Shown here piece by piece: positions 32,235 to 57,410 of a DNA stretch of 64,000 nucleotides (positions are counted from its first letter, which is position 1; each line of letters begins with the position of its first letter). Both the position numbers and the translations under genes were made by a program. The DNA is from a virus, in the IMG/VR virus record IMGVR_UViG_3300027843_000001, one strand, 5' to 3'. A model generated the notes under the pieces. The model was not told the DNA's origin and made no database searches. It worked only from the letters and a program-made list of their open reading frames with translations.

Positions 32235-32249
32235 GCTGTCTTGGTAATT
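32214..32249. repeat. Perfect 36-bp palindrome centred next to the stop codon
   Basis: aattaccaagacagctta|taagctgtcttggtaatt. Confidence 0.9.
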
Positions 32250-32328
32250 TAAGTTTTTGTTCGCAAATCCTTAAAATTTCGTGGTGTTTCATGCTGATAC
32301 TCAGATTGGTTTAGATATATAATAGTTA
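32248..32328 (+). mobile_element. Platform A: attI-like site plus integrase 5' stub (81 bp)
   Basis: Copy of 46042-46122; encodes MKHHEILRICEQKLK on the minus strand; ends at the GTTA junction of the first cassette. Confidence 0.85.
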
Positions 32329-32332
32329 TGCT

Positions 32333-32635
32333 TCATGCTAAAGAAGCCTCTGCGATAATTTGGTCTGATAATGAATAAACCATTCTTTTAGCAGTTAAAA
32401 AAAGACTTCCAAAATCATCGGGTTGCCTTTGTCTTAGTTTTGCAAAGAATTTCATATCGGTTTTTACTTTGTCCAAAAATTCAGTTATCCAACCAACAGA
32501 AGTATCTCCTTGTGGTGGTAAATTACCATCGTGCATTACCCTGTAAAGTTCCACGCTCATCCAACTGTCAGTTGATTCCCACACATTATGAGATTCATTT
32601 ATTGAGTATTTCTCAAATAATTCTTGTTTTGTCAT
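32333..32635 (-). CDS. Cassette A1 gene 2, hypothetical
   Basis: Probable start MTKQELFEKY directly after the upstream TAA. Confidence 0.7.
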   Translation of the reverse strand: MTKQELFEKYSINESHNVWESTDSWMSVELYRVMHDGNLPPQGDTSVGWITEFLDKVKTDMKFFAKLRQRQPDDFGSLFLTAKRMVYSLSDQIIAEASLA

Positions 32636-32636
32636 T

Positions 32637-32855
32637 TTAGTAAATGTTATTTTCAGGTGTTTCAAAATCTTGTCTTTGTTCCAATCTGTCAGCAGTATCA
32701 CGCAAATGTTTAATCATATCCTCTCTATTTGCCGTTGATATGTAATTTGCTACTGCTGGGTTTCCATAAGGAAAAACTAAAATAGTACAACCGAAATCTT
32801 TAGGTAAGAATTTAAGCACACTATCTGCCATTTTTTGCATTGCTATTTTACTCAT
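32637..32855 (-). CDS. Cassette A1 gene 1, hypothetical
   Basis: 72 aa with an AT-rich leader. Confidence 0.7.
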   Translation of the reverse strand: MSKIAMQKMADSVLKFLPKDFGCTILVFPYGNPAVANYISTANREDMIKHLRDTADRLEQRQDFETPENNIY

Positions 32856-32901
32856 TTATATTTAGTTTTAAATTTATAATTAATTGAAATAAAGCACGAA
32901 A

Positions 32902-33030
32902 GCATAACACAAGCTATAACCAATAAAGGTTTTAGTGGTTTATTTAGCGTTGTAGCTCGCATCCAGTTCAGTATCGTTTGATAGCGCATCGTACCGTAAT
33001 CCTTTACTGGTCATAGCTTCAACGTTATAA
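32902..33030 (+). mobile_element. attC-like site A1 (129 bp)
   Basis: GCATAAC-ACAAG-CTATAACCAATAAAGG ... CCTTTACTGGTCATAG-CTTCAAC-GTTATAA. Confidence 0.85.
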
Positions 33031-33101
33031 GCAAGGCGGGGAAGTGCTTCTATTTAAGGTCATCGGTAATTTGATGAAAAATAAAAGCCCCCGCCAGCAA
33101 A

Positions 33102-33551
33102 TTAAGGAATGACAATACAATCAATTCCAAGTTCAACAGCAATATCATATTCCTCTTTTACGCCTTCAATCATATTACCAATAAATATTGCTACACCGTT
33201 TGTTTTCTTAATGTTTTCTAACATTAGCCTTCTATCCCAAACCAAAGCATCGCCGTCTAATGTTGTGCCGTACCAGCAAACAATGTGTTCAGATACCTTT
33301 TCCAAAAAATCCCAAACAGTTAATGGAATATTTTTTTCAATCAAAGTCTTTTTTGGTAAAAAGCAATGATGCAAAACTGAACGAGGTTCATCGTATTCCA
33401 TTTGAACATCATCCATTTTGTAACTTCTTTCTGAAAAATCAAATTGCCCTTGGTATTTATCACTTTCAAGCCATTCGTTAAATTTTTTATCTACACTTTC
33501 AACCGTTTGGTTTTTAATTGTGAAATGCAGCGAAATATCATACTTTTTCAT
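33102..33551 (-). CDS. Cassette A2 gene, hypothetical
   Basis: Probable start MKKYDISL; cassette ends GTTATAAGC / GCTTATAAC are complementary. Confidence 0.7.
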   Translation of the reverse strand: MKKYDISLHFTIKNQTVESVDKKFNEWLESDKYQGQFDFSERSYKMDDVQMEYDEPRSVLHHCFLPKKTLIEKNIPLTVWDFLEKVSEHIVCWYGTTLDGDALVWDRRLMLENIKKTNGVAIFIGNMIEGVKEEYDIAVELGIDCIVIP

Positions 33552-33633
33552 ATCGTTATGGGTTTTACAACGCCCGCCCAAGGCTTTTATTTTTAGTGTT
33601 TCAATTCAAGTTTAGTAAGTAAAATCGCCCAGC

Positions 33634-33763
33634 TTATAACACGTGGTATAAAACAAAGCGGTTTTAGTGGTTCTCTAAGCGTTGTACCCCGTACCATTTT
33701 TCCCTGCATCGGGAAAATGGTTTCTCCGCTCTCCGCTTCGATTTCATACCACAGCCGTTAGCT
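33634..33763 (+). mobile_element. attC-like site A2 (130 bp)
   Basis: TTATAAC-ACGTG-GTATAAAACAAAGCGG ... CCGCTTCGATTTCATAC-CACAGCC-GTTAGCT. Confidence 0.85.
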
Positions 33764-33770
33764 GCCATTC

Positions 33771-33841
33771 CTCAACAAATAAAGGTATTAATACCCGAAT
33801 AAAAAATATGTTATGCAGCACATAAAATTGGTATATTTGCA
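33771..33841 (+). promoter_or_regulatory. Promoter block (ATGTT-N4-AGCA motif plus TATATTTG)
   Basis: Related to the blocks at 48851-48917 and 52491-52557; precedes the ORF at 33864. Confidence 0.65.
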
Positions 33842-33863
33842 TAAACATTAATCCATTAGAACT

Positions 33864-34724
33864 ATGGCAAATTTAGTTAAATTAACCGTTTTAGACGGTG
33901 GTCGTTTGACCAGAAGGACGGGCAGCATGTACTTTAACACTTCCCGTATTATTAGTTTCAAAACTGTAACAGCCGGGACTTTGCTGTTCTACAATGACAA
34001 TCGTAACGGGTGGCGGGAAAAGCCCGCTAAGATTTTAGTTAGTGACTCGTATGCCACCATAGCCGCTGCCGCTGCCATCTATGCCCCCGGCAACCGAATC
34101 TCGGTCAGCATCTTACAGAAAGGTAGCGACGTTTATGCTTCGGCTGTAACCGGTAGTCTTTGCGTGGATGACATCGTACTGGCCTATGCCAACCCCGGAA
34201 ACACTTCTACCCAGACTTATTTGCTCTTGCAGCATGGTATTTGGACTGCTGTAGAATACGTTATAAGTTCTTCCATTGCTGCTTTCTACAATGCTTCTAA
34301 AAAGATTACCGATGGCGTTAATACTTTAGTGGTTACTATTGGTAGCATTGGATCGACTACGGACGACTACAAATTCACTTCCGCCGCAAATACCACTGAG
34401 CAGGTTATTACCCTTACAGGGGCTATCCCCGCTTTTGCTCGTATTTTGGATTGGGCGGTTATCACAACAACAGCTTTCACCGGTATAACCGGCCTCACTA
34501 CCGCAGTCGGTACAACCTCGAGTGGAACGGAATTGGTTACAGATACCTCCAACCTTGCTGCGAATACCATTCTCAGCGGAGCTATAGCTGGCGCGCCGTA
34601 CCTTGCGGGTTCTGCTACTGCGCAAAATATTTTCATCAGTTGTAACCCGACCGGTAACTGGTCAACTATGACGGGAGGGCAGTTGAAGGTAGTCATAACT
34701 TATGTTGATAGGGCTAATGCCTGA
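33864..34724 (+). CDS. Putative virion protein
   Basis: 286 aa, T/A/G-rich beta-type C-terminal domain; followed by a terminator. Confidence 0.6.
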   Translation: MANLVKLTVLDGGRLTRRTGSMYFNTSRIISFKTVTAGTLLFYNDNRNGWREKPAKILVSDSYATIAAAAAIYAPGNRISVSILQKGSDVYASAVTGSLCVDDIVLAYANPGNTSTQTYLLLQHGIWTAVEYVISSSIAAFYNASKKITDGVNTLVVTIGSIGSTTDDYKFTSAANTTEQVITLTGAIPAFARILDWAVITTTAFTGITGLTTAVGTTSSGTELVTDTSNLAANTILSGAIAGAPYLAGSATAQNIFISCNPTGNWSTMTGGQLKVVITYVDRANA

Positions 34725-34736
34725 TAACGCTTAACA

Positions 34737-34762
34737 GAAGGAGGCCGCCAACCTCCTTCTTC
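34737..34762 (+). terminator. Intrinsic terminator
   Basis: gaaggagg-ccgccaa-cctccttc. Confidence 0.65.
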
Positions 34763-34784
34763 ATTTCATAAAACACACGAACTT

Positions 34785-35468
34785 ATGGAGCTGACTAAAA
34801 AAGATATTAACGTATCCAAGCTAAAGTATGACCCTTTTGACCCGAAGACAGTCAAAGCTTTGCAGGAGTACGAGGAGTTTAAGCAGGATTTTGGGGTGGA
34901 TAAGCAAAAGTTGTTTGCGTACATAATTTTGATGTACGACATGGGTAGCGACTTACGCCATAAAATAGAATGGCTTAATCCCCGTAAAAAGCAAGCCGCG
35001 GAGCTTGCTAATTTTCCTAAAGCCGACAGGGGCAGCACATTTGAACCTAATTATGAGAATATCATCATAGGGGGCAACAAAAAAGCCAACTCGGCCATAT
35101 CCCGGTACATACGTCTATTTGCAAATCCAAAATACACGTTACTCATATATTATCAAACCATTTTAGCATCGGAGTTTGATAACCTTAATGACCGTAGCGC
35201 AAAATCTAGTGACTACAATAAGATACTCGGCAATATAAAAGCTTGCGATGCCGGCATAGAGAACTGTACTAGCGCATTATTTGGTGGTGATGAAGAAATA
35301 TCAAGCATAAAACTAGCCCTTTACGAAGACGCTGAGAGGGAAAACCTCGGCCTAAGACCAGAAGACGTAGCCTTAGACCTGAGTATCCTCGACGACATAA
35401 TAGCCAACAGTAATCCTTACGGCAAAGGTTATAAGCCAAGAGAATTAAAGTTTAAAGGGGATAAGTAG
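34785..35468 (+). CDS. Hypothetical protein, possible small terminase
   Basis: Helical 227 aa protein immediately upstream of TerL. Confidence 0.5.
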   Translation: MELTKKDINVSKLKYDPFDPKTVKALQEYEEFKQDFGVDKQKLFAYIILMYDMGSDLRHKIEWLNPRKKQAAELANFPKADRGSTFEPNYENIIIGGNKKANSAISRYIRLFANPKYTLLIYYQTILASEFDNLNDRSAKSSDYNKILGNIKACDAGIENCTSALFGGDEEISSIKLALYEDAERENLGLRPEDVALDLSILDDIIANSNPYGKGYKPRELKFKGDK

Positions 35469-35469
35469 T

Positions 35470-37785
35470 ATGAAATATAATTATCTACCCGCTGATGAGT
35501 CATTTGTGGTTAATAATGGGCATCCTAAAGGGATTGACCGGGATTCCTATCTAAAGCCAATCCGCGTATTACTCCCTGAACCGCCTCCTTTAGAACTTAT
35601 TGAAGGATACGGCCTCCCCCCGAAAGAACAGAGATGGAGACCCCCAAAAATGCCGGATAAATTAACCTTGCTGCAAAAAAAGATAATAAGGGATTTCAGC
35701 GATGACGATAAGCAGAAAAGCTATTACGTTGTTGTTGACAGGATATGGGAAGAAATAGAAAATAACCAGGAAGACTATAAGGACGAAATAGAATGGATAA
35801 AGTACCAATGGTATTATAGAACGCAAGGGTATTGGTTCTTTAACAACGGTAAGCCTACATATATAACCGGATGGCATTGGTTCTTTTTATCCTATTGGCA
35901 CTTGGAGGGGGTTAAATTACCGGAATACAGGGATAGGACTAGGCGTACTTTTCTGTTCTGGGATTACATATCTAAAACAAGGGAGTCTTTCAAGTATCTG
36001 GATGCTGATGGCAACGCCATATCCAATGACGACGGGACTTACGATATGATAGAAATGCCAGTACGTACCTTTTATGGCGTTGGTCAGGGCAAAGGCCGGC
36101 GGGAGGGCGTGTCCAATATGTCGCAAGCTGCCCAATTTGAGACCTGCTCACGGGAACAGGGAGCCATAGGCGCCATCTTTTCAATGAACGCTACGAGTGC
36201 ATACAAGTTGTTTTACGAAAAAACCGTACAAGCTTTTTCTAAGATACCTTTCTTTTTCCTGCCTAAGTGGGATGGCTACTTTAAGCAATCTACTTCTATC
36301 GACTTCGAAAATCCAAAAAATGTTACTTCTGGTTTGGAACTAAAAAGCGCAATATCTTATGCGCAGTCAGCTTTTGGCGATGCTTATGATGGCGGTAAAC
36401 TCCGGTTCGCCATATTTGATGAAAGTGGAAAGACTAAGGACTGCGATATAACAAAAAGATGGGATACACATAAGAGGGGGTTAGCCCTTGGTGAAGGTGC
36501 CAGCATATTTGGCTTTTGTATTCACCCATCTACTACCGAAGATATGGAACTTAAAGGTGGGGCTAATTATCAGAAATTTCTTATTGACTCGGATTTTTAT
36601 AACCGAAACCCTGTAAACGGGCAGACAAAAACGGGATGCGCTAATATCTTTCTACCTTTCTATGATGGTATGGAGAGTTTTATTGACCCTTTCGGTAACT
36701 CCATAATAGATGAACCAACGGATGAGCAAATAAAAACTGGTTTTAAGTTCCGGACAGGCTCCTACCAATTTCTTAAATCGGGCCGGGACAGACTCCTAAA
36801 CAGCAAAGACCCCAGAGATATGGTCAAATACAGGGAAATGGTAGTCAAGCAGCCCTTCAACTTTATGGAGATGTTCTCGCTGTCTTCCGGCAACCCTATT
36901 TTCAACCTTGACATAGTTAATAAGCGTTGCTCAGAGTTGGCCACAATGCCAGACCCTTATATACGTGGTAATTTTGAGTTCACGGGCGAAGAATTTAATA
37001 GTGACGTTAGGTTCATACCTTGCTCTGATGGCCGTTGTGAGGTATCACTCGTGCTATCCCCTGAGCAAGCCAATTTGCGGCATAAAGAGTTCATATTAGA
37101 CAGGTTCACTGGTGAACAACGCGAAGTATGGGCACCAAATTTACAGCATATTGGTGTCGTAGGCGTTGACCCTTATAAGTCAAGCGGGGGTGATAAAAAG
37201 ATGGCGGCCAAGACTGGTTACTATGCGTCAGATGGAGGCATAGCAGCTTTTAAGATAGGCGACAAATACGAACTTAGTGAGGAAGCATTATCATTCGAAT
37301 ACCCCAGGTTCGTTGTCGTTTACCGCAACAGGCCACTGAGTAAAATATTTTATAAAGATGCGATAGCTATTGCGCAATATTACGGGTTTATGATATATCC
37401 GGAAACCAACGTTGATCAGTTTCTTGATTTTGTATCTGACCATAACTACGACGGGTATTTCCTGTACGACTGGGACGAGAATAAGATGGACTTCAAGCAG
37501 AAGCCGGGGGTGTTTCAATTAACAGCCAGCAAAGAGATAGGCTGGGACGAAATACGTAATTATATAGAGTTCCGGGGTCATAAGGAACGGCATTCGTCTC
37601 TACTTAAAGAGTTTTCTCAACTTAGTACTTTCGAGGATTTAGGGCGCAATGACATGGCCGCTGCCGCATTGTGCGCGTTACTTGGAGCGCGAGGTTTGTC
37701 CCGACGATACAAAAGGGCTGAGATGGTAGAAGAAACAAACGGCTATGACGATTGGGCTTCTATGGATGATGACTTTATGCTGTAA
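35470..37785 (+). CDS. terL: Terminase large subunit (crAss-like type)
   Basis: GKGRREGVS ATPase motif, Walker B FAIFDESGK, nuclease motifs VGVDPY and IYPETN. Confidence 0.9.
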   Translation: MKYNYLPADESFVVNNGHPKGIDRDSYLKPIRVLLPEPPPLELIEGYGLPPKEQRWRPPKMPDKLTLLQKKIIRDFSDDDKQKSYYVVVDRIWEEIENNQEDYKDEIEWIKYQWYYRTQGYWFFNNGKPTYITGWHWFFLSYWHLEGVKLPEYRDRTRRTFLFWDYISKTRESFKYLDADGNAISNDDGTYDMIEMPVRTFYGVGQGKGRREGVSNMSQAAQFETCSREQGAIGAIFSMNATSAYKLFYEKTVQAFSKIPFFFLPKWDGYFKQSTSIDFENPKNVTSGLELKSAISYAQSAFGDAYDGGKLRFAIFDESGKTKDCDITKRWDTHKRGLALGEGASIFGFCIHPSTTEDMELKGGANYQKFLIDSDFYNRNPVNGQTKTGCANIFLPFYDGMESFIDPFGNSIIDEPTDEQIKTGFKFRTGSYQFLKSGRDRLLNSKDPRDMVKYREMVVKQPFNFMEMFSLSSGNPIFNLDIVNKRCSELATMPDPYIRGNFEFTGEEFNSDVRFIPCSDGRCEVSLVLSPEQANLRHKEFILDRFTGEQREVWAPNLQHIGVVGVDPYKSSGGDKKMAAKTGYYASDGGIAAFKIGDKYELSEEALSFEYPRFVVVYRNRPLSKIFYKDAIAIAQYYGFMIYPETNVDQFLDFVSDHNYDGYFLYDWDENKMDFKQKPGVFQLTASKEIGWDEIRNYIEFRGHKERHSSLLKEFSQLSTFEDLGRNDMAAAALCALLGARGLSRRYKRAEMVEETNGYDDWASMDDDFML

Positions 37786-38843: not shown

Positions 38844-41141
38844 TTATCTTTGTGGTTTTTGTTCTGCTTCTTTCTCTCTCATGTAGGCTTCGTGCTCTTG
38901 GGCGCGGCCTAATTGCTCCATCTTTCCTTCTTGTTTCTTGTCTTCTATCAACAATTGCCCCTGCGTTTTTAATTGCAATTTACCGGCCTCCCCCTGCGTT
39001 TTGGCCTCCGCATTCTGCTGATTAATCTGACCCTGATATTGCATATTCTGTTGCTGCAAAGCGTCCTGTCTTGCCTGCTCTTTATTTATTGCATTTGTAA
39101 GGTACCGACGTATCTGTCTTAAATTACCACCGTTAAGCAATTTCTCTATAAGGTAGAATTTAATATCAAAACGCAATAATGGCGACCCGTTTTTACCCGG
39201 GGCTGCTGCTCTCTCAATTTCCTGCAACAACATTTGTCTATCCTGCGTAGTGGGTCGTGGTATCATCTTAATACCTATTTCCCTTGCTTCGTATTCGCTG
39301 TCAACTAAGGCTTCGATGTCATTCTTGCCTATGATACGGGCATAGGAACTGTACACTTTCTTATCGTTTCTTACGCCCAGACGAATCGCCTCGGCCAGAA
39401 ATTCCGAAGATTTTTCCTTTAAGAATAAAATATTTGCCACTATTGGCTTCAATATTTTAGAAGTGGCCTGCATAGCTATCTCATTGGAGCCTACTTGAGA
39501 CGAATTTGAGGGCTGCTGGCCTAATGCTATTGGGTTGAAACCCGTTAACATTTCCACCATGCTTATACATTGATTAAAGGATTGCATGCACTCGTTGATG
39601 GCATTTAGCGTGGTGCTTGGTATCTTTTCGATAGGCTTAACATTTCCGCCCTCATACCTTCCCCTGAACCCTAATGACCTGTAAGGGAATACCCCTGTTC
39701 GCTTCATAAGGTCTATCAATCCCAGAAAATCCATTTTTTTACCCTTTATGTCAATCTTATCTATCATTGATAAATCGACAAGGAATATTTCGTCATGCAA
39801 TTGCTGTAACCTCTTCTGAAATTTAAGCCATGTGTTTTGAAACAAGTCATATACCGGCACTAGGCGGGGCGTTAAAGCCTGCTCATTGCCCACGTATATA
39901 TGATATGGCGAGATGGGCTTTTTCGAAGATGCATTAACCGGTTGGCTTGGCGACAATTTAACATCGTAAACCATATTTGTACCTATTAGCCAATTGGCTT
40001 GGTACATTCTCTTTACTGTGGTAACAACTGTTTTATTATTGTCAGTATTTTTATTCTTAGCCCATTTATCCTGCGAGAAAATGGTGCGCTTCCCGTATCT
40101 GTCCTTGTTCTCGATATACTTTTCATTATCATTTTCAATCCAATGAAAACTTAACACCCCTACTTTGTAAAAGTCATATAGCCAATTACCGTATCGGTCT
40201 AAATTGAGGTATTTATCCCATTCGTTAAGGGGCGGGTTTCCAGTTCCGGGGTACTGACTCCAAAGTTTACCGACCTGCTGTATTTCTTCCTGCGTATAAC
40301 CAGCGGCCTCAAGGCGTTGTCTAATATCCGATATTGGTATAAACTGAATATGCCCCCAATAACAAGAGTCATTGCAATCCCTTTTGTCACTGTATTGGAC
40401 TATTAAACGGGTTACATCAACATATTCGACTTTATATTTATCTTCCGTGTGATCGAACACTTCCCTTATCGCACAAGCATTAAAATCCCGAATATCCTTT
40501 ATCAGCTTAACCCTTATATAGTCCCAATCCGATACTTCAAAAGTATGCTTATTCAACTTCTCTAACGCGGAAGCTACGGAGGACTTAAAATCGCCCATAT
40601 CCTTCATAAGTTCTAACTCATCAAGGTCGGTGGGGTATAGCGTCGGCGATTCTGCGGGTATCCCGGCATTCTGCTTGATCCGCTTTATCTGCTCGTAATG
40701 CTGACCTATTGCATAAGCTTCGCTCGCTTTTTGTTCCTGCTCATATACCGAATCCGGGTCTATAAGATCAGCTACGACCTCATAATCTATTTCGGCTAAA
40801 TTACCTAATAAGGCATCGGTTATACGCGGAGCTATTGCAGCAATATCCCAATTAATGTTCCCTTCCCCCCTGCGGTCATACTCACTTGGAGAGTTACTGT
40901 TCTTCTTACCCTTAAATATTTCCTTATATTTATTCACATCCTGCTTTCCCTCCGCATAAGCCCTTATCCGGTCAAAATCATTGACCAATGAATACGGCAC
41001 AGCGCAGCCATCACCAACGTAAGTTGACAATATCGCTTCCCCCATTTTTCGGGCGTATTTGGGAGTTAATTTATCCTTCGGGTCTATGTTTGAAGATGGA
41101 AATACGAATCTCTCAGAACTGTATCGGCTAAATGCTTCCAT
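38844..41141 (-). CDS. Portal protein (crAss-like)
   Basis: 765 aa; R.YAEGKQDVNKYK and INWDIAAIAPRI N-terminal motifs; Q-rich C-terminus. Confidence 0.85.
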   Translation of the reverse strand: MEAFSRYSSERFVFPSSNIDPKDKLTPKYARKMGEAILSTYVGDGCAVPYSLVNDFDRIRAYAEGKQDVNKYKEIFKGKKNSNSPSEYDRRGEGNINWDIAAIAPRITDALLGNLAEIDYEVVADLIDPDSVYEQEQKASEAYAIGQHYEQIKRIKQNAGIPAESPTLYPTDLDELELMKDMGDFKSSVASALEKLNKHTFEVSDWDYIRVKLIKDIRDFNACAIREVFDHTEDKYKVEYVDVTRLIVQYSDKRDCNDSCYWGHIQFIPISDIRQRLEAAGYTQEEIQQVGKLWSQYPGTGNPPLNEWDKYLNLDRYGNWLYDFYKVGVLSFHWIENDNEKYIENKDRYGKRTIFSQDKWAKNKNTDNNKTVVTTVKRMYQANWLIGTNMVYDVKLSPSQPVNASSKKPISPYHIYVGNEQALTPRLVPVYDLFQNTWLKFQKRLQQLHDEIFLVDLSMIDKIDIKGKKMDFLGLIDLMKRTGVFPYRSLGFRGRYEGGNVKPIEKIPSTTLNAINECMQSFNQCISMVEMLTGFNPIALGQQPSNSSQVGSNEIAMQATSKILKPIVANILFLKEKSSEFLAEAIRLGVRNDKKVYSSYARIIGKNDIEALVDSEYEAREIGIKMIPRPTTQDRQMLLQEIERAAAPGKNGSPLLRFDIKFYLIEKLLNGGNLRQIRRYLTNAINKEQARQDALQQQNMQYQGQINQQNAEAKTQGEAGKLQLKTQGQLLIEDKKQEGKMEQLGRAQEHEAYMREKEAEQKPQR

Positions 41142-45285: not shown

Positions 45286-46086
45286 TCATAAAGGTAAAGC
45301 AATTTTTTGAAGCAACGCCGTTGATACATGCGTGTAAATCTCCGTTGTTTTACCGCTAGAATGCCCAGCCATTTTTTGAATAATCCGCAAATCCGTTCCG
45401 CTCTCTAAAAGGCTAGTAAAGCATGAATGCCTAAGTATATGGAAATGACTGTGACTATCAATATACTTTTTAAAAATTTTCTGACAACTACCTACAGAAT
45501 ATTTTGGTTCAAACTGGCCATTAAAAAGATATTCCTTAGGCTTAAACTGCCGATAATATTCACGGAGCAATAGCAGAATGTTTTCCGATAATGGCACGAT
45601 CCTATCTTTGCGGCCTTTACCATTCTTAATAGTTATCAGCATACGTTTGCTGTCAATATCTGTGAGTTTAAGATTAACCACTTCACTTACACGCAGTCCG
45701 ACCGAAAACGCAAGCGACAGAATTGCCCTATGCTTTATGTTTTCAATTTTGTTTATCTGGTTTATAATAAAGTTTTTATCAATAACTTGCGGAAGATGCC
45801 GCTCACTACGCGGACGCTCAAACGAAACCTTATCATACTTCTTATCCAGTACCTTTTCATAAAGGAACTTGATGGCATTAATGACTTGGTTTTGTTGCGA
45901 AATGGACGTGAACTTGAAAGCATCCAAATAAGTTTGAAAGTCCGCAGCAACAATATGCTGCGGGTATTTATCCACCTTTTCGAGAAATTTAATAATATAG
46001 TGCGAGTACATGTCTCGCGTCCTCGGCGAGTAGTTTAAGTATTTAAACTTTTGTTCGCAAATCCTTAAAATTTCGTGGTGTTTCAT
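45286..46086 (-). CDS. Tyrosine recombinase, integron-integrase-like
   Basis: Catalytic R (GLRVSE), K (GKGRKDR), HxxR (HILRHS), H (AGHSS) and Y (IYTHV); N-terminal SAM-like domain (NYSPRT...YSHYI, QNQVINAIKFLYE). Confidence 0.95.
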   Translation of the reverse strand: MKHHEILRICEQKFKYLNYSPRTRDMYSHYIIKFLEKVDKYPQHIVAADFQTYLDAFKFTSISQQNQVINAIKFLYEKVLDKKYDKVSFERPRSERHLPQVIDKNFIINQINKIENIKHRAILSLAFSVGLRVSEVVNLKLTDIDSKRMLITIKNGKGRKDRIVPLSENILLLLREYYRQFKPKEYLFNGQFEPKYSVGSCQKIFKKYIDSHSHFHILRHSCFTSLLESGTDLRIIQKMAGHSSGKTTEIYTHVSTALLQKIALPL

Positions 46087-46122
46087 GTTGATAATCAGAT
46101 GGGTTCAGATATATAATAGTTA
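46042..46122 (+). mobile_element. Platform B: attI-like site overlapping the integrase 5' end
   Basis: ...cagatatataataGTTAGCAAC; the first cassette junction is 33 nt from the integrase ATG. Confidence 0.85.
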
Positions 46123-46410
46123 GCAACAATTGTCTAAGACGGTTTTCCAGTCGATAGATTTTCCGCAATATGGGCAGAAATTAAATCTATGAATGTATCC
46201 CTTTCTACCATCGACAATTTGTTTTGCTGTTAATGGCTCGCCTTTTAATAATCCATATTTTTTTAGCTCTGGCTGCAATTTTACAACATCTTCAACCTGT
46301 CTTTTTATGTCGGAAAGTTTTATATCTTCTCCGCTCAAAAATCCGATGAAACAATCACAACTGTTGCTAACACTATGTATAAGCGATTTGAGTTTTACTG
46401 CGCTTGTCAT
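46120..46410 (-). CDS. Cassette B1 gene, small protein with CPYCG zinc-finger-like motif
   Basis: ATG lies inside the attC B1 loop; the TAA is the complement of the junction TTA. Confidence 0.65.
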   Translation of the reverse strand: MTSAVKLKSLIHSVSNSCDCFIGFLSGEDIKLSDIKRQVEDVVKLQPELKKYGLLKGEPLTAKQIVDGRKGYIHRFNFCPYCGKSIDWKTVLDNCC

Positions 46411-46492
46411 ATCCTGTGATTTTTATAAAATTATTACTGTGATATAGTTTGCGGCTTCTAATCCCAAACCGCTCATACATTTTTCGTTAGCC
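46365..46492 (+). mobile_element. attC-like site B1 (128 bp)
   Basis: TGCTAAC-ACTAT-GTATAAGCGATTTG ... CAAACCGCTCATAC-ATTTTTC-GTTAGCC. Confidence 0.85.
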
Positions 46493-48180: not shown

Positions 48181-48233
48181 TTTGTTTGTTTTAAATTATT
48201 AATATATAGTAAATTATAAATAAAATGCACTGG

Positions 48234-48324
48234 TACTAACACCGTATATAAAACATAGCCAGATAGTTTACTGCTTAATTGCAAGGCTTGTGCATGGCTA
48301 CGTTTCATATAAGAACCGTTGTGC
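48234..48324 (+). mobile_element. attC-like site B3 (91 bp)
   Basis: TACTAAC-ACCGT-ATATAAAACATAGCC ... GGCTACGTTTCATAT-AAGAACC-GTTGTGC. Confidence 0.85.
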
Positions 48325-48850: not shown

Positions 48851-48917
48851 CAACAAATTAACTTATTAATCCTCATATAAAAAATATGTTAGAAAGCATA
48901 AAAATTATACCTTTGCA
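48851..48917 (+). promoter_or_regulatory. 67-bp promoter block, repeated at 52491-52557
   Basis: caacaaattaact...atataaaaaatatgttagaaagcataaaaattaTACCTTTGca. Confidence 0.75.
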
Positions 48918-48938
48918 ATACACAATATTATAGGCGCT

Positions 48939-49688
48939 ATGACTTTAGACCAGATACTCCACTTAGTTAATTACGTCTGCGTGAAGGAACGCTCGGGGGG
49001 AACTCTATCGCCGGATCAGCTTAATTTTATACTGCCGGCGGCTAATATGAACATGTTCAACCGCAATGTCGAGGCTGCTCAGTTATACACCGTCCAGAAA
49101 AATATTCCTTTTATAGAAGGTATTTATGTCTTTAAATCATTAAATGATTTTCGCAGAAAGGTCGATATAACTTTTACTGCCGGCGCTTACGATTTGAGTA
49201 ATACTTCCGATTATGGCCATTACGCAAGTTTATTCACTAGCTACAATGGCGCTTATAGGCGCATAGACATCTTAACAGATTCCGGATTAGCTGAAAGGCG
49301 TAGCAATATGTTAGCCCCCCGGTTATCGGAGCATCCGGCAGCCGTTATAAATGGTACGGATATTCTCATATATCCCACAGATATTACCGCTGCCGAATTT
49401 ACTTACCTGAAACTACCCAGCATTCCGGTGTACGATTATTACCTGACCTCCTATGGTGAACAAATCGCTTTAGCGGCTGGTCAGACATACACTTTGCAAA
49501 CGGGTGAAATTGGCTCCGCCGGGCAGACTTCCGGTAGTGTGTCATCGACTACGGTAGAATTGGAATGGAGTCCACTATACCATATCGAATTTGCGAATGA
49601 ACTTCTAAAGATGGTGGGCGTAAATCTTAAAGACGAACAAGTGCGTCAATATGCTTCTGCCGCACAGCAAGATAATAGGCCAATATGA
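48939..49688 (+). CDS. Tail ring / head-tail connector protein (crAss-like)
   Basis: Paralogous to 52560-53240 (MTLDQIL vs MNLDSIL; ELEWSPLYH vs QFEWPEAYH). Confidence 0.65.
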   Translation: MTLDQILHLVNYVCVKERSGGTLSPDQLNFILPAANMNMFNRNVEAAQLYTVQKNIPFIEGIYVFKSLNDFRRKVDITFTAGAYDLSNTSDYGHYASLFTSYNGAYRRIDILTDSGLAERRSNMLAPRLSEHPAAVINGTDILIYPTDITAAEFTYLKLPSIPVYDYYLTSYGEQIALAAGQTYTLQTGEIGSAGQTSGSVSSTTVELEWSPLYHIEFANELLKMVGVNLKDEQVRQYASAAQQDNRPI

Positions 49689-51017: not shown

Positions 51018-51098
51018 TTTAAGTTTTTGTTCGCAAATCTTTAAAATTTCGTAGCGTTTCGTGCTGATACTTAGATTGGTTTAGATATGTAATAGTTA
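51018..51098 (+). mobile_element. Platform C: attI-like site plus integrase stub (start codon ATG changed to ACG)
   Basis: 81-bp copy, 6 mismatches to platform A. Confidence 0.85.
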
Positions 51099-51121
51099 TA
51101 TGCAAGGCTAAGACCGTGCAT

Positions 51122-51952
51122 TTAATCAACATTTGTGGGTTCATCCGTAAAAGAAAAAAGCCCACGCTCTTTTGCTTTTTCAAAGCAATTAGGGTTTATG
51201 TCGCAACCTATAAAGTTTCGTTTCAAATCTTTGCATACTTCGGCAGTTGTAAAACTTCCAGAATAAAAGTCTGCAACTAAATCTCCTTCATTGCTACTTG
51301 CTTTAATAATTCGCTCAATTAATGCTTTTGGTTTTTGGGTATCATATCCAAGTCTTTCAGAGTTAGTCGGCCCCAAATTATTCAATTCCCAAACATCATC
51401 AATAGGTGTTGAATCTTGTATTTTATAAACAACATCACCATTTTCGTCCCTTTTCATTACCTTTTTACCATCTTTCACATCTACTTTATTTTTCTTTCTT
51501 GGTGTCTCTAATGGCAATCTTAATTCATTAAATATTATTTTGTCAGTTTTGCCATAAAATATAAGTATATCGTGGTTTTTAGCAAACGCCTTTTGCTTTA
51601 TACTCCATTTATTGTAACTCCAAATAACCTCATTCACAAAATTATCGTATCCAAATATGTCATCCATTATACACCTAATCCAATGGTTTATTTTGGTATC
51701 CATTTGTAAATAAATACTTCCTGTTGGTTTCAATATTCGGTGCATTTCTTTTATTCGTGGTATATAGTGGCTTTCAATTTCACTTCTTATGGGTTTCAAA
51801 TCTTGGTAGTCTTTAAACTTCCTGCCAGTTCCATAAAGTATATCACAATAAATTAAGTCTATCGTGTTATCTTTAATTTCTGCCATCAATTCTAAATTGT
51901 CGCAAATTCTAAGGTCTAAAAAACCATCCCCATTTTTTTCTTTTACTATCAT
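51122..51952 (-). CDS. Cassette C1 gene: DNA methyltransferase (N6-A/N4-C, beta-type order)
   Basis: IYCDILYGTG, LKPTGSIY, NEVIW, YDTQKPKALIERII and ADFYSGSFTT motifs. Confidence 0.9.
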   Translation of the reverse strand: MIVKEKNGDGFLDLRICDNLELMAEIKDNTIDLIYCDILYGTGRKFKDYQDLKPIRSEIESHYIPRIKEMHRILKPTGSIYLQMDTKINHWIRCIMDDIFGYDNFVNEVIWSYNKWSIKQKAFAKNHDILIFYGKTDKIIFNELRLPLETPRKKNKVDVKDGKKVMKRDENGDVVYKIQDSTPIDDVWELNNLGPTNSERLGYDTQKPKALIERIIKASSNEGDLVADFYSGSFTTAEVCKDLKRNFIGCDINPNCFEKAKERGLFSFTDEPTNVD

Positions 51953-51993
51953 TTATTCATTTAATTAAGTTTCTACTAATTTTACCGCCCAGC

Positions 51994-52093
51994 ATATAAC
52001 ACGTTGTATATGTCAGTTTTGCCAATTGGCTTTCGTGCTTTGAATAGGAATGTGTGCGTGGCAAAACCGAACACATACAACCATCCGTTAGCG
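51994..52093 (+). mobile_element. attC-like site C1 (100 bp)
   Basis: ATATAAC-ACGTT-GTATATGTCAGTTTTGCC ... GGCAAAACCGAACACATAC-AACCATCC-GTTAGCG. Confidence 0.85.
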
Positions 52094-52490: not shown

Positions 52491-52557
52491 CAACAAATTA
52501 ACTCGTTAATACACATATAAAAAATATGTTAGAAAGCATAAAAATTATACCTTTGCA
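52491..52557 (+). promoter_or_regulatory. 67-bp promoter block, repeat of 48851-48917
   Basis: Nearly identical copy; TACCTTTG at 52548-52555. Confidence 0.75.
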
Positions 52558-52559
52558 GT

Positions 52560-53240
52560 ATGAACTTAGACTCTATACTAAATACGGTCAGAACCATTAT
52601 TAACCAAGTAAGCCCTTCCTTACAGCTTACGGAGGATATGTTTTCGGACGTGTGCCAATTGGTCAACCTGGATTACTTCAAGTTGTGGTGCGGACTTCCG
52701 GAAGACTGGGCACCGGGGCAGCCGGTTTCCCGAAGGGGCTGGCAGGTGTCGAGCCAAAACACGGAAGCACTCAAGACGTTCTTAGTTGACGAGGCTACGT
52801 ACTCTGTCACCATAGCCGGTAAGTTGACATACCCCGCCAACTTTGTCCATATTGATCTTATAAAGTTCAACTACCAAGGCACTGAAATATCGGTCACAGA
52901 AAAGGATCATCAGGAAATAGGGAACTTACTTAAAAGCCCTATTCTTGCACCTACTTCGCAATACCCCATTTTCACCTATTACGGGGCTTACCTTCAATTT
53001 TATCCTAAGGATTTAGCCAATGTAACGATGAGCTACTTCCGGCTTCCTACGACCCCGAAATATGTCATAAAGGAGGAGAACGGGGTCAACGTATACGACC
53101 CTGATAATTCAGTTCAATTCGAATGGCCGGAGGCTTACCACAATGACTTGGTTAAAATGATTCTCTCCTATTTGGGCATAAGCTCAAAGGATGTCAATGT
53201 GGCTAATTACGCAGAAAGTGTTAAGGCTAAAGGGGCTTAA
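52560..53240 (+). CDS. Tail ring / connector protein, paralog of 48939-49688
   Basis: Shared N- and C-terminal motifs, and YFRLPTTP vs YLKLPSIP. Confidence 0.65.
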   Translation: MNLDSILNTVRTIINQVSPSLQLTEDMFSDVCQLVNLDYFKLWCGLPEDWAPGQPVSRRGWQVSSQNTEALKTFLVDEATYSVTIAGKLTYPANFVHIDLIKFNYQGTEISVTEKDHQEIGNLLKSPILAPTSQYPIFTYYGAYLQFYPKDLANVTMSYFRLPTTPKYVIKEENGVNVYDPDNSVQFEWPEAYHNDLVKMILSYLGISSKDVNVANYAESVKAKGA

Positions 53241-53250: not shown

Positions 53251-53269
53251 GAAAAATTTTATTGTATCC

Positions 53270-53512: not shown

Positions 53513-53522
53513 AATAATCGGT

Positions 53523-53714
53523 TTATAGCGCCATAGGTGGATCAGTAACTTTGTATATGCAATACCCGTCGGCATCCGCCCTTTTTGCCGTTGGGTTCAT
53601 TATGTACTGGCGCCAGAGTTTATTGATTGTGTCCTCATCCGTTTGTACCCTTACGCCGTTGGCGTCTTCGTACCATTGATCCCGGCCTTTTTCACCAAAA
53701 ATATGTACTTCCAT
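53523..53714 (-). CDS. Hypothetical protein
   Basis: 63 aa; starts 5 nt from the platform D stub. Confidence 0.6.
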   Translation of the reverse strand: MEVHIFGEKGRDQWYEDANGVRVQTDEDTINKLWRQYIMNPTAKRADADGYCIYKVTDPPMAL

Positions 53715-53718
53715 AGGT

Positions 53719-53799
53719 TTTAAGTTTTTGTTCGCAAATCCTTAAAATTTCGTAGTGTTTCATGCTGATACTCAGATCGGTTTAGATATATAATAGTTA
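53719..53799 (+). mobile_element. Platform D: attI-like site plus integrase stub
   Basis: 81 bp, 2 mismatches to platform A. Confidence 0.88.
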
Positions 53800-53806
53800 T
53801 ATGAAA

Positions 53807-53992
53807 TTATTCAATCCACCGCCTAACAACTTCAAACTCATTGTTATTAGTCCAGCATTTCAAATAATCTCTTTCTAACAATATTTCAACTAATGAACTT
53901 ATTTCAAAGTCATCTAAATCAACTGTAATTTCAAACTGCTTATATTTTAAGCTTCCTGTATTTACTTTTATTTCATAATGTATGTTAATCAT
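53807..53992 (-). CDS. Cassette D1 gene, hypothetical
   Basis: Probable start MINIHY; cassette ends GTTATATG / CATATAAC. Confidence 0.6.
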   Translation of the reverse strand: MINIHYEIKVNTGSLKYKQFEITVDLDDFEISSLVEILLERDYLKCWTNNNEFEVVRRWIE

Positions 53993-54011
53993 ATATTTAA
54001 ATATAAACCTC

Positions 54012-54142
54012 ATATAACATCGGCTCATATTTCATAAGGGTTTAAGTGCGATGTGTAACTTTTCCCCTCGTAGGTAATTATTTGTAATTTGACAGGCTTG
54101 TGCTTCGATTACCCTTACGAAACATAGCCGTGTTCGTTAGCC
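54012..54142 (+). mobile_element. attC-like site D1 (131 bp)
   Basis: ATATAAC-ATCGG-CTCATATTTCATAAGGG ... CCCTTACGAAACATAG-CCGTGTTC-GTTAGCC. Confidence 0.88.
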
Positions 54143-54850
54143 ACCATATACAAACAGCCTTTCGACAGTTTTGTAAGTTAATGTGGTATTCATTGAATTT
54201 GTTACTTCTTTCGACCAAACACAAATAAAGTCATTTGGTGCTTGATATTCGGAAATAAATACTTTATGTCCTTGATTTGTCATATCTCTACACCATCCCC
54301 AAAATTTATTATGGTTAAAGTTTTTTGAAGTTGCATATTGTTTTGTGTTTTGGTACGGAATGTCGCAATAAATTATAGAATTTTCAAATAGTTCAATGTC
54401 AGAATAGTTTCCACTTATAAATATTGCACCTTTTAAAAATTCAACTTGTTTTAATGTATTTCTAATTTGTTCATCAACATAATCCCTTGTTGCTGTTTTA
54501 CCTGAATATCCACCATCGAAAAACCTACCATTAAAAGAAGCCATCCACCCAATCCACCCAATCATAAAATCGTCAAATTCTATGTTAGTCCCATTATTAT
54601 ATTCTGATCTTGCTTTTGAATATAACTCTTTCGATATTTCCATTGGTTTATCTCTATTTTCTTGCAATCCTTTCCACATTGCAATCAAATATTTGTTTTT
54701 ATCAATAGCAATCCTATTTCCAGAAACTTTGTCAAATGTTCCTAAACCACCACAAAACGGCTCAATATAGTATTGATTATCTTTTCTGTCTTTTAATATA
54801 ATCGGAAGTATTTCTTTTGCTATCCGATTTTTTGAACCCATGTATTTCAT
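54137..54850 (-). CDS. Cassette D2 gene: Dam-like (D12 class) DNA adenine methyltransferase
   Basis: YMGSKNRIAK, YIEPFCGG, IYCDIPY and VFISEY motifs; stop codon in the junction. Confidence 0.9.
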   Translation of the reverse strand: MKYMGSKNRIAKEILPIILKDRKDNQYYIEPFCGGLGTFDKVSGNRIAIDKNKYLIAMWKGLQENRDKPMEISKELYSKARSEYNNGTNIEFDDFMIGWIGWMASFNGRFFDGGYSGKTATRDYVDEQIRNTLKQVEFLKGAIFISGNYSDIELFENSIIYCDIPYQNTKQYATSKNFNHNKFWGWCRDMTNQGHKVFISEYQAPNDFICVWSKEVTNSMNTTLTYKTVERLFVYGG

Positions 54851-54883
54851 TTATCTATATTTTAATTTATTACTAAATACGGT

Positions 54884-55014
54884 GGCTAACAATGTGTAGC
54901 ACCAATAAGGGTTTTACTGCAAATTTTAAGCGTTGTAGTCCGCTTGTTGGTCGGTATAGTTTGATAGGTTTGAACTCCGCAATCCCTTACTTGTGCTACA
55001 CTCGTCCGTTATAA
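54884..55014 (+). mobile_element. attC-like site D2 (131 bp)
   Basis: GGCTAAC-AATGT-GTAGCACCAATAAGGG ... CCCTTACTTGTGCTAC-ACTCGTCC-GTTATAA. Confidence 0.88.
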
Positions 55015-55060
55015 CCAATGCAAGAACGCTCCTTGGATAGTTCCTGCATTAGATTAAAGT

Positions 55061-55540
55061 TTACTCTTTCAAAAGAAGTTTAGCAACATCTTCTTTTAAC
55101 ATTCCGTTTTCGTGCAATTTTGCTACAATTTGAGAAGCAAAAAGCATATCGTAACGGTCTTTAAGCTCTTTTGATATTTTATCAGAAGTTTTTGTCGTTT
55201 GAGAGTTTAAAAAATCTCTCAATTTGTTTTCGCTTAATTGCGTTCTTTCCAATTCTTCTGTTATCCATTCGGAAATAGAAATCATGTCATTGGAATTGTA
55301 ACGCTTTTTAACTTTGGCGTTTACAACAAGCTCATTTAAGGCACTTATTATAAATTGCTCCTTTTGCTTTTCAATTTCCGCAATCACGGCACTATTAAAT
55401 TCAGCACCTATTTTTGCTTTCCAATCGGCTAAAATTTGTTGCCTTACATTATAGGCAATTGCACTTTTAATTTGCTCCGAAAAAGAGCTTTCGTCTTCTG
55501 AATAAAAATCAGATAAATCTACTGTTACATTAATTTTCAT
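55061..55540 (-). CDS. Cassette D3 gene, helical hypothetical
   Basis: 159 aa; cassette ends GTTATAACCA / TGGTTATAAC. Confidence 0.75.
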   Translation of the reverse strand: MKINVTVDLSDFYSEDESSFSEQIKSAIAYNVRQQILADWKAKIGAEFNSAVIAEIEKQKEQFIISALNELVVNAKVKKRYNSNDMISISEWITEELERTQLSENKLRDFLNSQTTKTSDKISKELKDRYDMLFASQIVAKLHENGMLKEDVAKLLLKE

Positions 55541-55586
55541 TTCTTTAAGTATTTAGTTATTAATAATTTAAAATAAAATGCACTGG

Positions 55587-55717
55587 TTATAACACACGCT
55601 CATACGTAACGTTGGTTTTAGTGCCTATTTTATGCGGTCTGCTTCTAATTTAGTTCGGTAACGTGGGATAAGTAACCGCTTCGAAATCCCACGCTACGCA
55701 TAGCGGAAACGTTAAAT
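55587..55717 (+). mobile_element. attC-like site D3 (131 bp)
   Basis: TTATAAC-ACACG-CTCATACGTAACGTTGG ... CCACGCTACGCATAG-CGGAAAC-GTTAAAT. Confidence 0.85.
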
Positions 55718-55869
55718 ACACAATCACGCATTACATCTCTACCCGGAGCAATAACTAATAATGTTTTCATAATTTAAAATTTACTGTATTTTGATAAATA
55801 TGTTTTTCGATTTCCGATACTTTTCACAGAAACCAACAAATCGGGTTTTATAATATTCTGCTGTTTAGT

Positions 55870-56097
55870 TTAATTCTCCATATACCTTTTCTGATGCGCA
55901 ATTAAGTTGAGCATACCCGCAGAATTTTTTTCTGCTTCCGAAAATAATTCTGTTAGTGTTTTGTTATACACCTTATTTTGCTTTTCAAAATCCCTACTGA
56001 CTTTTCTGTTTGCAAAGAATATAGCCACTGCTGCTAATATGCCAACGGCATCTATGACAAGTGCTGTATAAGCTAATATGTCTATTACGTTTTTCAT
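55870..56097 (-). CDS. Small membrane protein
   Basis: N-terminal TM segment. Confidence 0.6.
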   Translation of the reverse strand: MKNVIDILAYTALVIDAVGILAAVAIFFANRKVSRDFEKQNKVYNKTLTELFSEAEKNSAGMLNLIAHQKRYMEN

Positions 56098-56306
56098 GCT
56101 TTCTCAAAATAAATTCTTAAGTCATAATGAATCCCGACATAATCCCAATTAAAGAAGCAAGTCTCTTTTGGTATAGGGTACTCTTGGAATCCGTAAACAG
56201 CCAAATCGCGTTTCAAATGGTCAAAGTTAAGGTAATCCTTAGATAACTCCCGGCCATTGCCGTATCGCTTTGTATCCAGTTTGGCATAATAAAAATTTTT
56301 CTCCAT
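56094..56306 (-). CDS. Hypothetical protein
   Basis: 70 aa; AAAGCCATG start context. Confidence 0.6.
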   Translation of the reverse strand: MEKNFYYAKLDTKRYGNGRELSKDYLNFDHLKRDLAVYGFQEYPIPKETCFFNWDYVGIHYDLRIYFEKA

Positions 56307-56333
56307 GGCTTTATTTATAATTTGTTTGCGTTA

Positions 56334-56690
56334 TTACAGCATTTGACCTTCGTGAGCGTTACCTAGTATAACATAACGTTCTGATTCAAATGAGTCGTTT
56401 AAGAATTGTTGGCCCCTAGATATTTCCGGATGCGGGTTACCAATAATTTTTATCCGGTTAGCAATTAATACGTAGCCCCTCCACTATATGAGGTATATAA
56501 CTGTCCCAGTCACAAGGTATTCTTTGTAAGGGTCTCTGCTACGCCCATCATACCCATCATAGTAATGATTATTCATTATTAGGGTCTCTGTAATAGCTGT
56601 GTAATCCCCCTCCCGCATAAGTTGGCCGTTCTTATCCTCGAAGGATGTTAAAAACAGGTGCCTACTGCTATCTAATTCTTTTTTCTCCAT
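56334..56690 (-). pseudogene. YopX-like gene interrupted by an in-frame TAG (56484-56486)
   Basis: FEDKNGQLMREGD before the TAG; the frame stays open for 49 codons after it and ends VILGNAHEGQML (YopX C-terminal IGNIHE-like). Confidence 0.7.
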
Positions 56691-56698
56691 GACTTTAT

Positions 56699-56938
56699 TT
56701 ATCTGTATTTTATTTTCAACATTAAAACATAATTCTCTACGCTCTTAAGCAAATCTGATTCGCTGCCCGGTACAAACTGCTTACCGTGCAAAGAACTCAA
56801 TGCTATTCTGTAGTACCTGAGGGCTTTTATTTCATCCCTCAGGCCGGTACCATTATCCGACAATGCTTTTTTATCTAATTGGGTTATGAACTTTGTCAGA
56901 TCATTTATGAATTTTTCTTTGTAGGTCATAGGTTCCAA
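56699..56938 (-). CDS. Hypothetical protein
   Basis: 79 aa ORF in the early operon. Confidence 0.6.
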   Translation of the reverse strand: MEPMTYKEKFINDLTKFITQLDKKALSDNGTGLRDEIKALRYYRIALSSLHGKQFVPGSESDLLKSVENYVLMLKIKYR

Positions 56939-57129
56939 CTTTTTATTTCTTTGACCATCCTTACGGAATCTTTACGGAATACCATAATAAAGGAATCCTT
57001 TTTCAACTTGTTGCATGACCCCTCAAGATAGCCATTTGTATAGATATACATTACGTTCGTTAATGCTAAATTCGATATTCGCGTACAGGATACGAGCGAT
57101 AAGGCAGCCATTGCTATAATCGTTTTCAT
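56926..57129 (-). CDS. Small lipoprotein-like protein
   Basis: Probable start MKTIIAMAALSLVSC. Confidence 0.55.
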   Translation of the reverse strand: MKTIIAMAALSLVSCTRISNLALTNVMYIYTNGYLEGSCNKLKKDSFIMVFRKDSVRMVKEIKSWNL

Positions 57130-57130
57130 A

Positions 57131-57325
57131 CTACCTACAATTAAATTCATCGTTTATGGGCATTGCGAAGCAAGTGGAAAACCTGCCCTCCCAGAACCGG
57201 CCATTGTGCGAAAACTTAGGCGGCTTTTGGGGCTTATCGGTAGAGGCAACATAGTGATGACCCTTTTCATCAATGGCCATTAGTGTCTGGCCAGATTTTG
57301 ATAACTCAAAAGTAAGTTTTTCCAT
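57131..57325 (-). CDS. Hypothetical protein
   Basis: 64 aa, directly after the platform E stub. Confidence 0.6.
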   Translation of the reverse strand: MEKLTFELSKSGQTLMAIDEKGHHYVASTDKPQKPPKFSHNGRFWEGRFSTCFAMPINDEFNCR

Positions 57326-57348
57326 GACGTTTTTATTTTAGTTTGTTG

Positions 57349-57410
57349 ATCCTTAAATTTTCGTGGTGTTTCATGCTGATACGCAGATTGGTTTAGATAT
57401 ATAATAGTTA
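57349..57410 (+). mobile_element. Platform E: attI-like site plus shortened integrase stub
   Basis: atccttaaattttcgtggtgtttcatgctgatacgcagattggtttagatatataataGTTA. Confidence 0.82.

Follow-up and report, generated by a model that had tools for sequence, protein, structure and literature searches.

Possession of an IntI enzyme defines an integron, and such systems are regarded as bacterial. We analysed a stretch of 64,000 nucleotides (the window) from the virus record IMGVR_UViG_3300027843_000001 of IMG/VR, which covers most of a 71,116-bp record with the completeness rating "complete" and comes from a crAss-like phage. In this window, an 81-bp unit, designated S, forms the 5' end of a tyrosine recombinase gene and is repeated as four orphan stubs. 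S is probably the recombinase-proximal site, equivalent to attI, of a phage-borne integron-like cassette system with a non-IntI enzyme, and the stubs are orphan copies of this site. The name attI is used by analogy only, because the enzyme is not an IntI.

The integron parts described from phages in the literature are canonical IntI and attC (Qi et al. 2023, PMC9892861). By comparison, the system in the window appears integron-like in four respects: the site beside the integrase, exchange at an AAC or GTT core, intergenic hairpins, and cassettes that change context. A tyrosine recombinase gene carries a composite site on its 5' side, single genes or small groups appear to be exchanged exactly at ..AAC/ (equal to the G/TT core; a slash marks the point of exchange), hairpin-forming imperfect palindromes lie between genes, and one cassette is found in many contexts. 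The attI site of integrons also has extra enzyme-binding repeats beside the crossover. The system is unlike an integron in four other respects, namely the clade of the enzyme, the direction of the genes, the side of the open reading frame (ORF) on which the hairpin lies, and the overlap of site and gene. The phage enzyme has 266 aa without the IntI insertion and scores 139 bits against a cut-off of 265 for integron integrases. Its site overlaps the start codon and the first 15 codons of its own gene, the cassette genes are directed towards the recombinase and not away from it to be read from Pc, and the hairpin modules lie upstream of their ORF. The carrier is a crAss-like phage, with four orphan attI-like copies.

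Xer/dif and the pdif modules of Acinetobacter plasmids are comparable in their enzymes, XerA and XerC/D being the nearest families, in the 11-6-11 layout of a dyad within S (IR1), and in having several sites per replicon that bound gene modules. They differ in that the phage-encoded enzyme scores 170 bits against 220 for XerA, that the mapped phage junctions are at TAAC and not in the dyad, and that the phage sites are direct repeats rather than alternating inverted ones. In T4-type phages, a repeated early promoter with a stem-loop (PeSL), reportedly described by Arbiol and colleagues in 2010, is said to flank the genes of hyperplastic regions. PeSL shuffling is ascribed to homologous recombination, thought to proceed via circles, with no dedicated recombinase. 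A regulatory-looking repeat in the range of 50-80 bp, with a stem-loop, that brackets accessory early genes of a lytic-type phage is the feature shared with the window. However, S forms the 5' end of the recombinase gene itself and has a site-specific junction as its left edge, and a working promoter does not appear to stand before each flanked gene, as two stubs (A and C) have no downstream gene, the motif does not precede other genes and a -7 box is absent. In the SSV1-type fusellovirus integrase and in Mx8 intP, the attachment site lies inside the gene itself, which is split or altered when the element integrates at a tRNA gene or chromosomal target of the host. The overlap of recombination site and integrase coding sequence, linking site and gene, is shared with the phage, whereas the phage crossover maps before the ATG and a second element occupies the coding part.

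A different and shorter recombinase family appears to do the integron job for Bacteroidota phages. The locus gives the clearest anatomy so far of the enzyme-side site, with an exchange point, a second covarying element in the coding sequence, an apparent helical register, and a joint swap of site and N-terminal domain. Orphan sites, the dyad inside the gene, spacing classes and module exchange are what this window adds, and it suggests a route by which phages trade DNA methyltransferases, as candidate anti-restriction genes.

Copies of S and the recombinase gene

Five direct copies of S were found, all on the minus strand (Table 1). Copy B is an intact gene start, and A, C, D and E are orphan stubs, which bears out the original prediction of a stereotyped 81-bp unit with one intact and four orphan occurrences. 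No copy beyond these five is present in the 71-kb record. Coordinates begin with the T of TAACTAT and finish with the final A of CTTAAA, and the shared 81 bp consist of TAACTATTATATAT, a 24-nt leader and the codons ATG AAA CAC CAC GAA ATT TTA AGG ATT TGC GAA CAA AAA CTT AAA. The 14-mer TAACTANNATATAT is confined to the five copies in the window, with a chance expectation of 0.9. Exact-pattern scans for S gave no match in viral contigs or metagenome contigs. A looser 14-base pattern search returned only chance AT-rich matches, many of them in giant viruses, and was discarded.

The differences counted earlier between the copies hold, at two positions between A and D and six between B and the stubs, and C indeed lacks the ATG, with ACG in its place. 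The six differences of B from the stub consensus comprise four in the leader and those in codons 13-14 (AAA CTT in the stubs versus AAG TTT). B is no outlier in divergence, because its six private changes are matched by five to six in C. Stubs C and D have the derived CAC>TAC change in common. The common stub end claimed in the original prediction stands in that the right ends of the four orphan stubs lie 0-5 bases apart, with the correction that in C the match to the integrase reaches 4-5 nt further (ATACTT) than in the other stubs. Stub E is not merely shorter as had been stated: a gapped alignment takes it to the common right end (CTAAAAT), with 6 nt lost and the right third degenerate.

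The catalytic set of the recombinase is complete (R, K, HxxR, H, Y). XerA, IntI4 (2a3v) and XerD are its nearest solved relatives, and the alignment to IntI4 falls in two stretches. All curated models scored below threshold: TIGR02249 (integron integrase) with 139 bits against a cut-off of 265 and a match in two stretches, PRK15417 with 103 bits against 435, XerA_Arch with 170 against 220, XerD with 134 against 330, and XerC with 133 against 335. By these thresholds the predicted enzyme is neither an integron integrase nor XerA. The family has more than 8000 relatives at about 70% identity, mainly on short contigs. Related loci were collected from IMG/VR (47) and from metagenomes (80), with recombinases 53-80% identical.

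The opposite strand of S (46088-46117, 53765-53794 and 57376-57405, plus strand) has a strong sigma-70-like promoter look, with TTGATA or CTGATA, 18 nt and TATAAT, directed away from the recombinase. The spacing is lost in relatives and the hosts use another promoter type; this match is probably due to chance.

The two edges of S

The left edge of S reads TAAC/TATTATATAT. Each related locus has a single TAACTATNATATAT motif, invariably placed 45-75 nt before the start of the recombinase gene, and the gene content upstream of it varies, as in a primary, attI-type site beside the integrase at which cassettes join. At copy B, the upstream gene, which encodes a 96-aa Zn-ribbon protein, uses the TAA of TAAC as its stop codon. 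This protein is one of 51 that cluster together at 90% identity or more. The end of its gene, ..AATTGTTGCTAAC or ..TTGCTAAC, was invariant in 20 fetched contigs and was followed after TAAC by at least nine unrelated sequences; the hairpin leader of the cassette starts directly after another ..YTAAC, with at least eight distinct upstream flanks. For the N4/N6 methyltransferase upstream of stub C, relatives number in the hundreds, and the contigs that carry them are mostly only about 1 kb long. The homologues examined share the end ..GCATATAAC (..GCACGGnCTTAGCCTTGCATATAAC), after which at least five contexts diverge; one example of a cassette junction is ..GCATATAAC/GTGTTATATGC. A contig from a biogas run follows the phage, apart from one mismatch, as far as the C of TAAC at base 51095, where it departs from it. 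Contig ends also accumulate here: 9 of 79 metagenome contigs begin between -77 and +21 of the first base of S, and four contigs (L022/L238, L195 and L006) begin no more than 3 nt from TAACTAT. Because the cassette ends are constant, the contexts diverge there and contig ends pile up, S is taken to begin at a site-specific exchange point, ..YTAAC/.

This exchange point is the complement of the G/TT core of integron sites. The cassette cores match RYYYAAC and GTTRRRY loosely, and the junctions after ..YTAAC correspond to the complement of GTTR... Imperfect palindromes of 60-110 nt are present, and the hairpin modules sit upstream of their ORF. The palindrome beside the Dam-like methyltransferase (Table 1) also follows the 96-aa cassette in two other contigs (L281/L282). 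The cassette ORFs adjoining all five copies lie on the integrase strand and are directed towards the integrase. PADLOC gave nothing for eight cassette proteins.

Two observations concern the cassettes themselves. The 96-aa Zn-ribbon protein (46120-46410, minus strand; CPYCGKSIDW) is more conserved than the recombinase and was found in many neighbourhoods, in metagenomes from sewage and biogas among others. Several contigs have, behind the methyltransferase cassette, an ORF (2490-2650 of contig L174, plus strand) that starts ATGAAACACAAATTTTCAG, resembling the phage recombinase start ATGAAACACCACGAAATTTTAAG; this could be another fused stub or a chance similarity.

At the right edge, S contains the dyad IR1 in codons 6-15, TTTAAGGATTT GCGAAC AAAAACTTAAA, with the 11-bp inverted arms and 6-bp centre of a 28-bp site, and the stubs stop at the last base of its right arm. 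Among 40 distinct family sites, the covariation score of IR1 is 0.314 against 0.148 +/- 0.012 for shuffles (none of 500 reached it) and 0.149 for the best slid register, and 7 of the 11 arm pairs have changes on both sides. For 58 distinct sites taken from 121 loci, Watson-Crick pairs number 7.22 of 11, and shuffling of the partners lowers this to 6.10 +/- 0.11. Close sisters on the protein tree are separated by paired changes in which both encoded residues differ, as in TATAAA..TTTATA, TGTAAA..TTTACA and ATACAA..TTGTAT. A second dyad, AGTTTA-N6-TAAACT, across the stub end in copy B was rejected, since alleles that use other codons do not preserve it. IR1 is probably a second recombinase-binding site, or a hairpin in single-stranded DNA or RNA. 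The predicted layout of S is a strand-exchange junction ..YTAAC/TATTATATAT, a leader, the start codon, and IR1.

S is bounded on both sides by family-wide conserved elements, which supports a functional site reaching into the coding sequence. The original prediction had proposed such a unit, extending from upstream into the integrase gene, and the junction, the covarying dyad, the spacing steps of about 10 bp, and the coincidence of stub end and dyad end all argue for it.

The distance between motif and IR1 falls in three classes, with 52/53 bp in 3 loci including this phage, 63/64 bp in 52 loci, and 71-75 bp in 59 loci. These are suggestive of steps of about one helical turn, and not proof of them, because few independent indels underlie the classes. 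On a tree of 115 recombinase bodies, from which residues 1-22 were excluded, there are 15 changes of spacing class and 27 of arm type, compared with 36-44 for shuffled labels. Near-identical recombinase bodies with different 5' modules were found, for example in the pairs L187/L194, L217/L204 and L253/L040, the first of which shows a clean switch from low to high identity around codons 45-50. The 5' module is swapped independently of the gene body, with the site and the N-terminal domain moving together. Because the site overlaps the gene start, it would stay linked to its recognition domain, and site and N-terminal DNA-binding part would be inherited and exchanged together.

Origin of the orphan copies and alternative explanations

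The accessory blocks ended by orphan copies of S contain genes for a nucleotidyltransferase and two DNA methyltransferases, a pair of virion-protein paralogues, and small ORFs. At the junctions of the copies, the recombinase would exchange DNA, with the stubs usable as sites. The stubs most likely descend from one truncated copy, cut at AAC/TT in codons 13-14 of an integrase allele. They end ..CAAAAAC/TTAAA, where the resident gene has CAAAAGTTTAAA, which accounts for two of its six differences. A wastewater contig diverges exactly at AAATAC/TTAAAG, a form like the stub end, 9 nt before the ATG of the 159-aa gene, whose leader reads ..ATAC/TTAAA.., and the leaders of the methyltransferase and of a 104-aa gene have ..AAAC/TTAAT.. 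4-12 nt before the ATG. In the proposed course of events, an integrase allele with an internal AAC/TT site would have been severed from its body, the resulting stub would have spread along with cassettes, and the surviving gene would be one without the internal motif. The six states common to the stubs would then be due to the spread of one truncated stub. The original prediction had derived the stubs from another allele and B from a separate acquisition, and the six states fit a single stub lineage equally, so the two cannot be told apart. The loss of AAC/TT in B suggests that the intact gene may have survived because it is free of the motif.

That the orphan copies are live docking sites, making a multi-platform integron in which one Xer/IntI-like enzyme serves five places of a lytic-type crAss-like phage, is a tentative and rather doubtful extension. 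If true, the enzyme would capture and reshuffle anti-restriction and other accessory genes at five genome places, site and DNA-recognition domain would pass between phages as one specificity module, and the cassette-capture capacity of a 71-kb phage would exceed the level given by one site.

Several results weigh against the attI-like role of S and its copies. BLAST and nhmmer searches with profiles of S and of the left part of S, covering 10 kb around each of 128 related loci, found no second copy of S; the recombinase family as a whole therefore does not have orphan sites as a general feature, and the earlier claim that S was propagated as a module holds for this genome only. No recombinant joints were seen in the Logan contigs of two wetland runs, where the reference order is kept, though contigs hide rare forms; the joints and loose ends seen there result from the copies aligning to one another and not from rearrangements. 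Free recombination among all copies would be harmful, because A-B encloses the terminase, portal and capsid genes. The proposed right-end cut at AAC/TT has one outside example as its basis. Stubs A and C have no gene next on their strand. The largest arm class, TTACGA..TTGAAG, pairs well only with G-T pairs allowed, and IR1 may for this reason be a hairpin in RNA or single-stranded DNA instead of a duplex binding site. Lastly, IMG/VR holds no close relative of the phage (queried with a 339-aa neighbour and the terminase), so that gain or loss of blocks cannot be read from relatives; GenBank phages have no DNA match to it either.

The copies would be inert scars without present function if DNA of a related phage, with its own S and integrase, had been joined at the resident junction by cointegration or module insertion and the redundant integrase bodies had later been deleted. 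A crossover at TAAC/ would put the incoming S body distal and leave the resident S with its gene, which fits the six states of the stubs against B. Copy E, the farthest, is also the most decayed, relatives lack stubs, and blocks B-C and C-D echo the layout of B-A (S, convergent late genes, late-promoter repeat, early genes) and hold 93%-identical late-promoter repeats together with distant paralogues. This explanation is nevertheless unlikely, as four deletions within 0-5 nt of the same base are unexpected from random deletion, and the inserted blocks show no paralogy with the resident late operon; the cointegrate idea predicted such paralogy, and the sole related pair is that of the 249-aa and 226-aa proteins, with 23% identity. 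In addition, a hand count on the alignment of the stubs gives about 4 changes in 182 sites for junction motif and dyad and about 12 in 195 for the stretch between, which lends weak support to constraint on the motif and IR1. With S as an expression module, a promoter, leader, short ORF and hairpin would have been spread by short-homology recombination at AAAACTTAAAT and would drive or translationally couple the genes behind. Stubs D and E are in fact followed 8-11 nt on by an ATG at or over which their short ORFs stop, A(A/T)ACTTAA(T/A) precedes the ATG of three cassette genes by 4-12 nt, E retains its left 57 nt despite the decayed dyad, and the dyad tolerates G-T(U) pairs like an RNA hairpin. 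However, A and C have no gene to drive, and A runs into a terminator. TAACTATTATATAT is no general promoter, because it precedes the recombinase and no other gene in each of more than 120 loci. S lacks the Bacteroidota -7 box (TAnnTTTG) found in the late-promoter repeats, the distance between motif and dyad shifts by helical-turn steps, and AAACTTAAA is unenriched in the window (72 found versus 63 expected). We regard such a module as quite unlikely.

Highly improbable is a third possibility, that IR1 is a true dif- or lox-like 28-bp crossover, with the five copies as resolution sites and the TAAC junction produced by another mechanism. The 11-6-11 geometry equals that of dif, the nearest solved relatives are those named above, and a single site beside the gene, as in Cre/loxP, is what relatives have. 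Yet homology among the copies extends to both sides of the IR1 spacer, no outside junction falls inside it, every mapped junction is at ..AAC/, and five direct resolution sites would excise the capsid genes.

Blocks and features around the copies

The features are listed in Table 1. Other landmarks of the genome are a muzzle-type protein (28734-32234), the terminase (35470-37785) and the portal (38844-41141). An Rfam scan matched a miRNA on the terminator palindrome and nothing else, and this match is spurious.

Table 1. Coordinates of the copies of S and of associated features in the window.
Feature	Position	Strand	Description
Perfect 18+18 palindrome	32214..32249	.	Terminator (bidirectional) between muzzle gene and stub A
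Stub A	32248..32328	-	Junction motif TAAC/TATTATATAT; ATG + 15 codons; complete IR1 32248-32275; terminator palindrome directly after
Tyrosine recombinase, 266 aa, Xer/IntI type	45286..46086	-	PF00589 + PF13495; real 5' end is copy B
Copy B	46042..46122	-	S joined to intact recombinase gene; IR1 at 46042-46069
96-aa Zn-ribbon gene cassette with hairpin leader	46120..46490	-	Terminates ..AATTGTTGCTAAC/ at left edge of copy B
Stub C	51018..51098	-	ACG for ATG; six private or shared changes; complete IR1
N4/N6 DNA methyltransferase cassette	51095..52002	-	Gene 51122-51952; terminates ..GCACGGTCTTAGCCTTGCATATAAC/ at left edge of stub C
ORF-less hairpin module GTTGTATGTG...CATATACAAC, 22-bp stem	52003..52081	-	Kept upstream of methyltransferase in other contigs
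Stub D	53719..53799	-	2 positions differ from A; ATG of 63-aa ORF 8 nt on
Dam-like (D12 class) DNA methyltransferase	54137..54850	-	E-D block
Long imperfect palindrome (attC-like hairpin)	54894..55001	-	Between 159-aa gene and Dam-like methyltransferase
Stub E	57336..57410	-	Left 57 nt well kept; dyad region degenerate, 6 nt shorter; 64-aa ORF ATG about 11 nt on

The five copies partition the region of 32-58 kb into blocks, each copy closing a series of minus-strand cassette genes on its downstream side, with hairpin modules, of a type also present in other arrays, between some of these genes. The E-D block contains small ORFs and the Dam-like methyltransferase, and the D-C block the N4/N6 methyltransferase and a virion-protein paralogue. 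The nucleotidyltransferase, the 96-aa gene, the second virion paralogue and two further late genes make up the C-B block, and the recombinase, terminase, portal and capsid genes the B-A block. Stub C is flanked by the stop codon of the N4/N6 methyltransferase gene on one side and by the end of a plus-strand gene, convergent with it, on the other.

The 63-aa ORF behind stub D (53523-53714, minus strand) has two homologues of 59-60% identity with about 10 extra variable N-terminal residues and no stub in front, and its start may have been remodelled on joining of the stub. The 64-aa ORF behind stub E matches only repeats in long proteins.

The two virion paralogues, of 249 and 226 aa (48939-49688 and 52560-53240, plus strand), lie in neighbouring blocks, are distantly related at the identity given above, and both belong to phrog_14543 ("virion structural protein"); they may be alternative virion parts imported as modules. 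A 70-nt element is present three times (33773-33842, 48851-48920 and 52491-52560, plus strand), ending in a Bacteroidota-type -7 box, TAccTTTG, just before a plus-strand late gene. Identity is 93% between the two elements of the inserted blocks and 64% between these and the resident element.

Two further repeats were observed among the minus-strand genes. A 52-nt repeat (48191-48242 and 55544-55595, minus strand; ..CCAGTGCATTTTATTT..) lies upstream of the 170-aa and 159-aa genes and may be an early promoter or leader; a wastewater contig has this repeat and a different ORF from base 55549 on. A 56-nt repeat (32904-32959 and 33636-33691, 73% identity), with ATAAC and GTTAT-like ends, is found among the small minus-strand genes upstream of stub A and may represent a further hairpin module of a short array.

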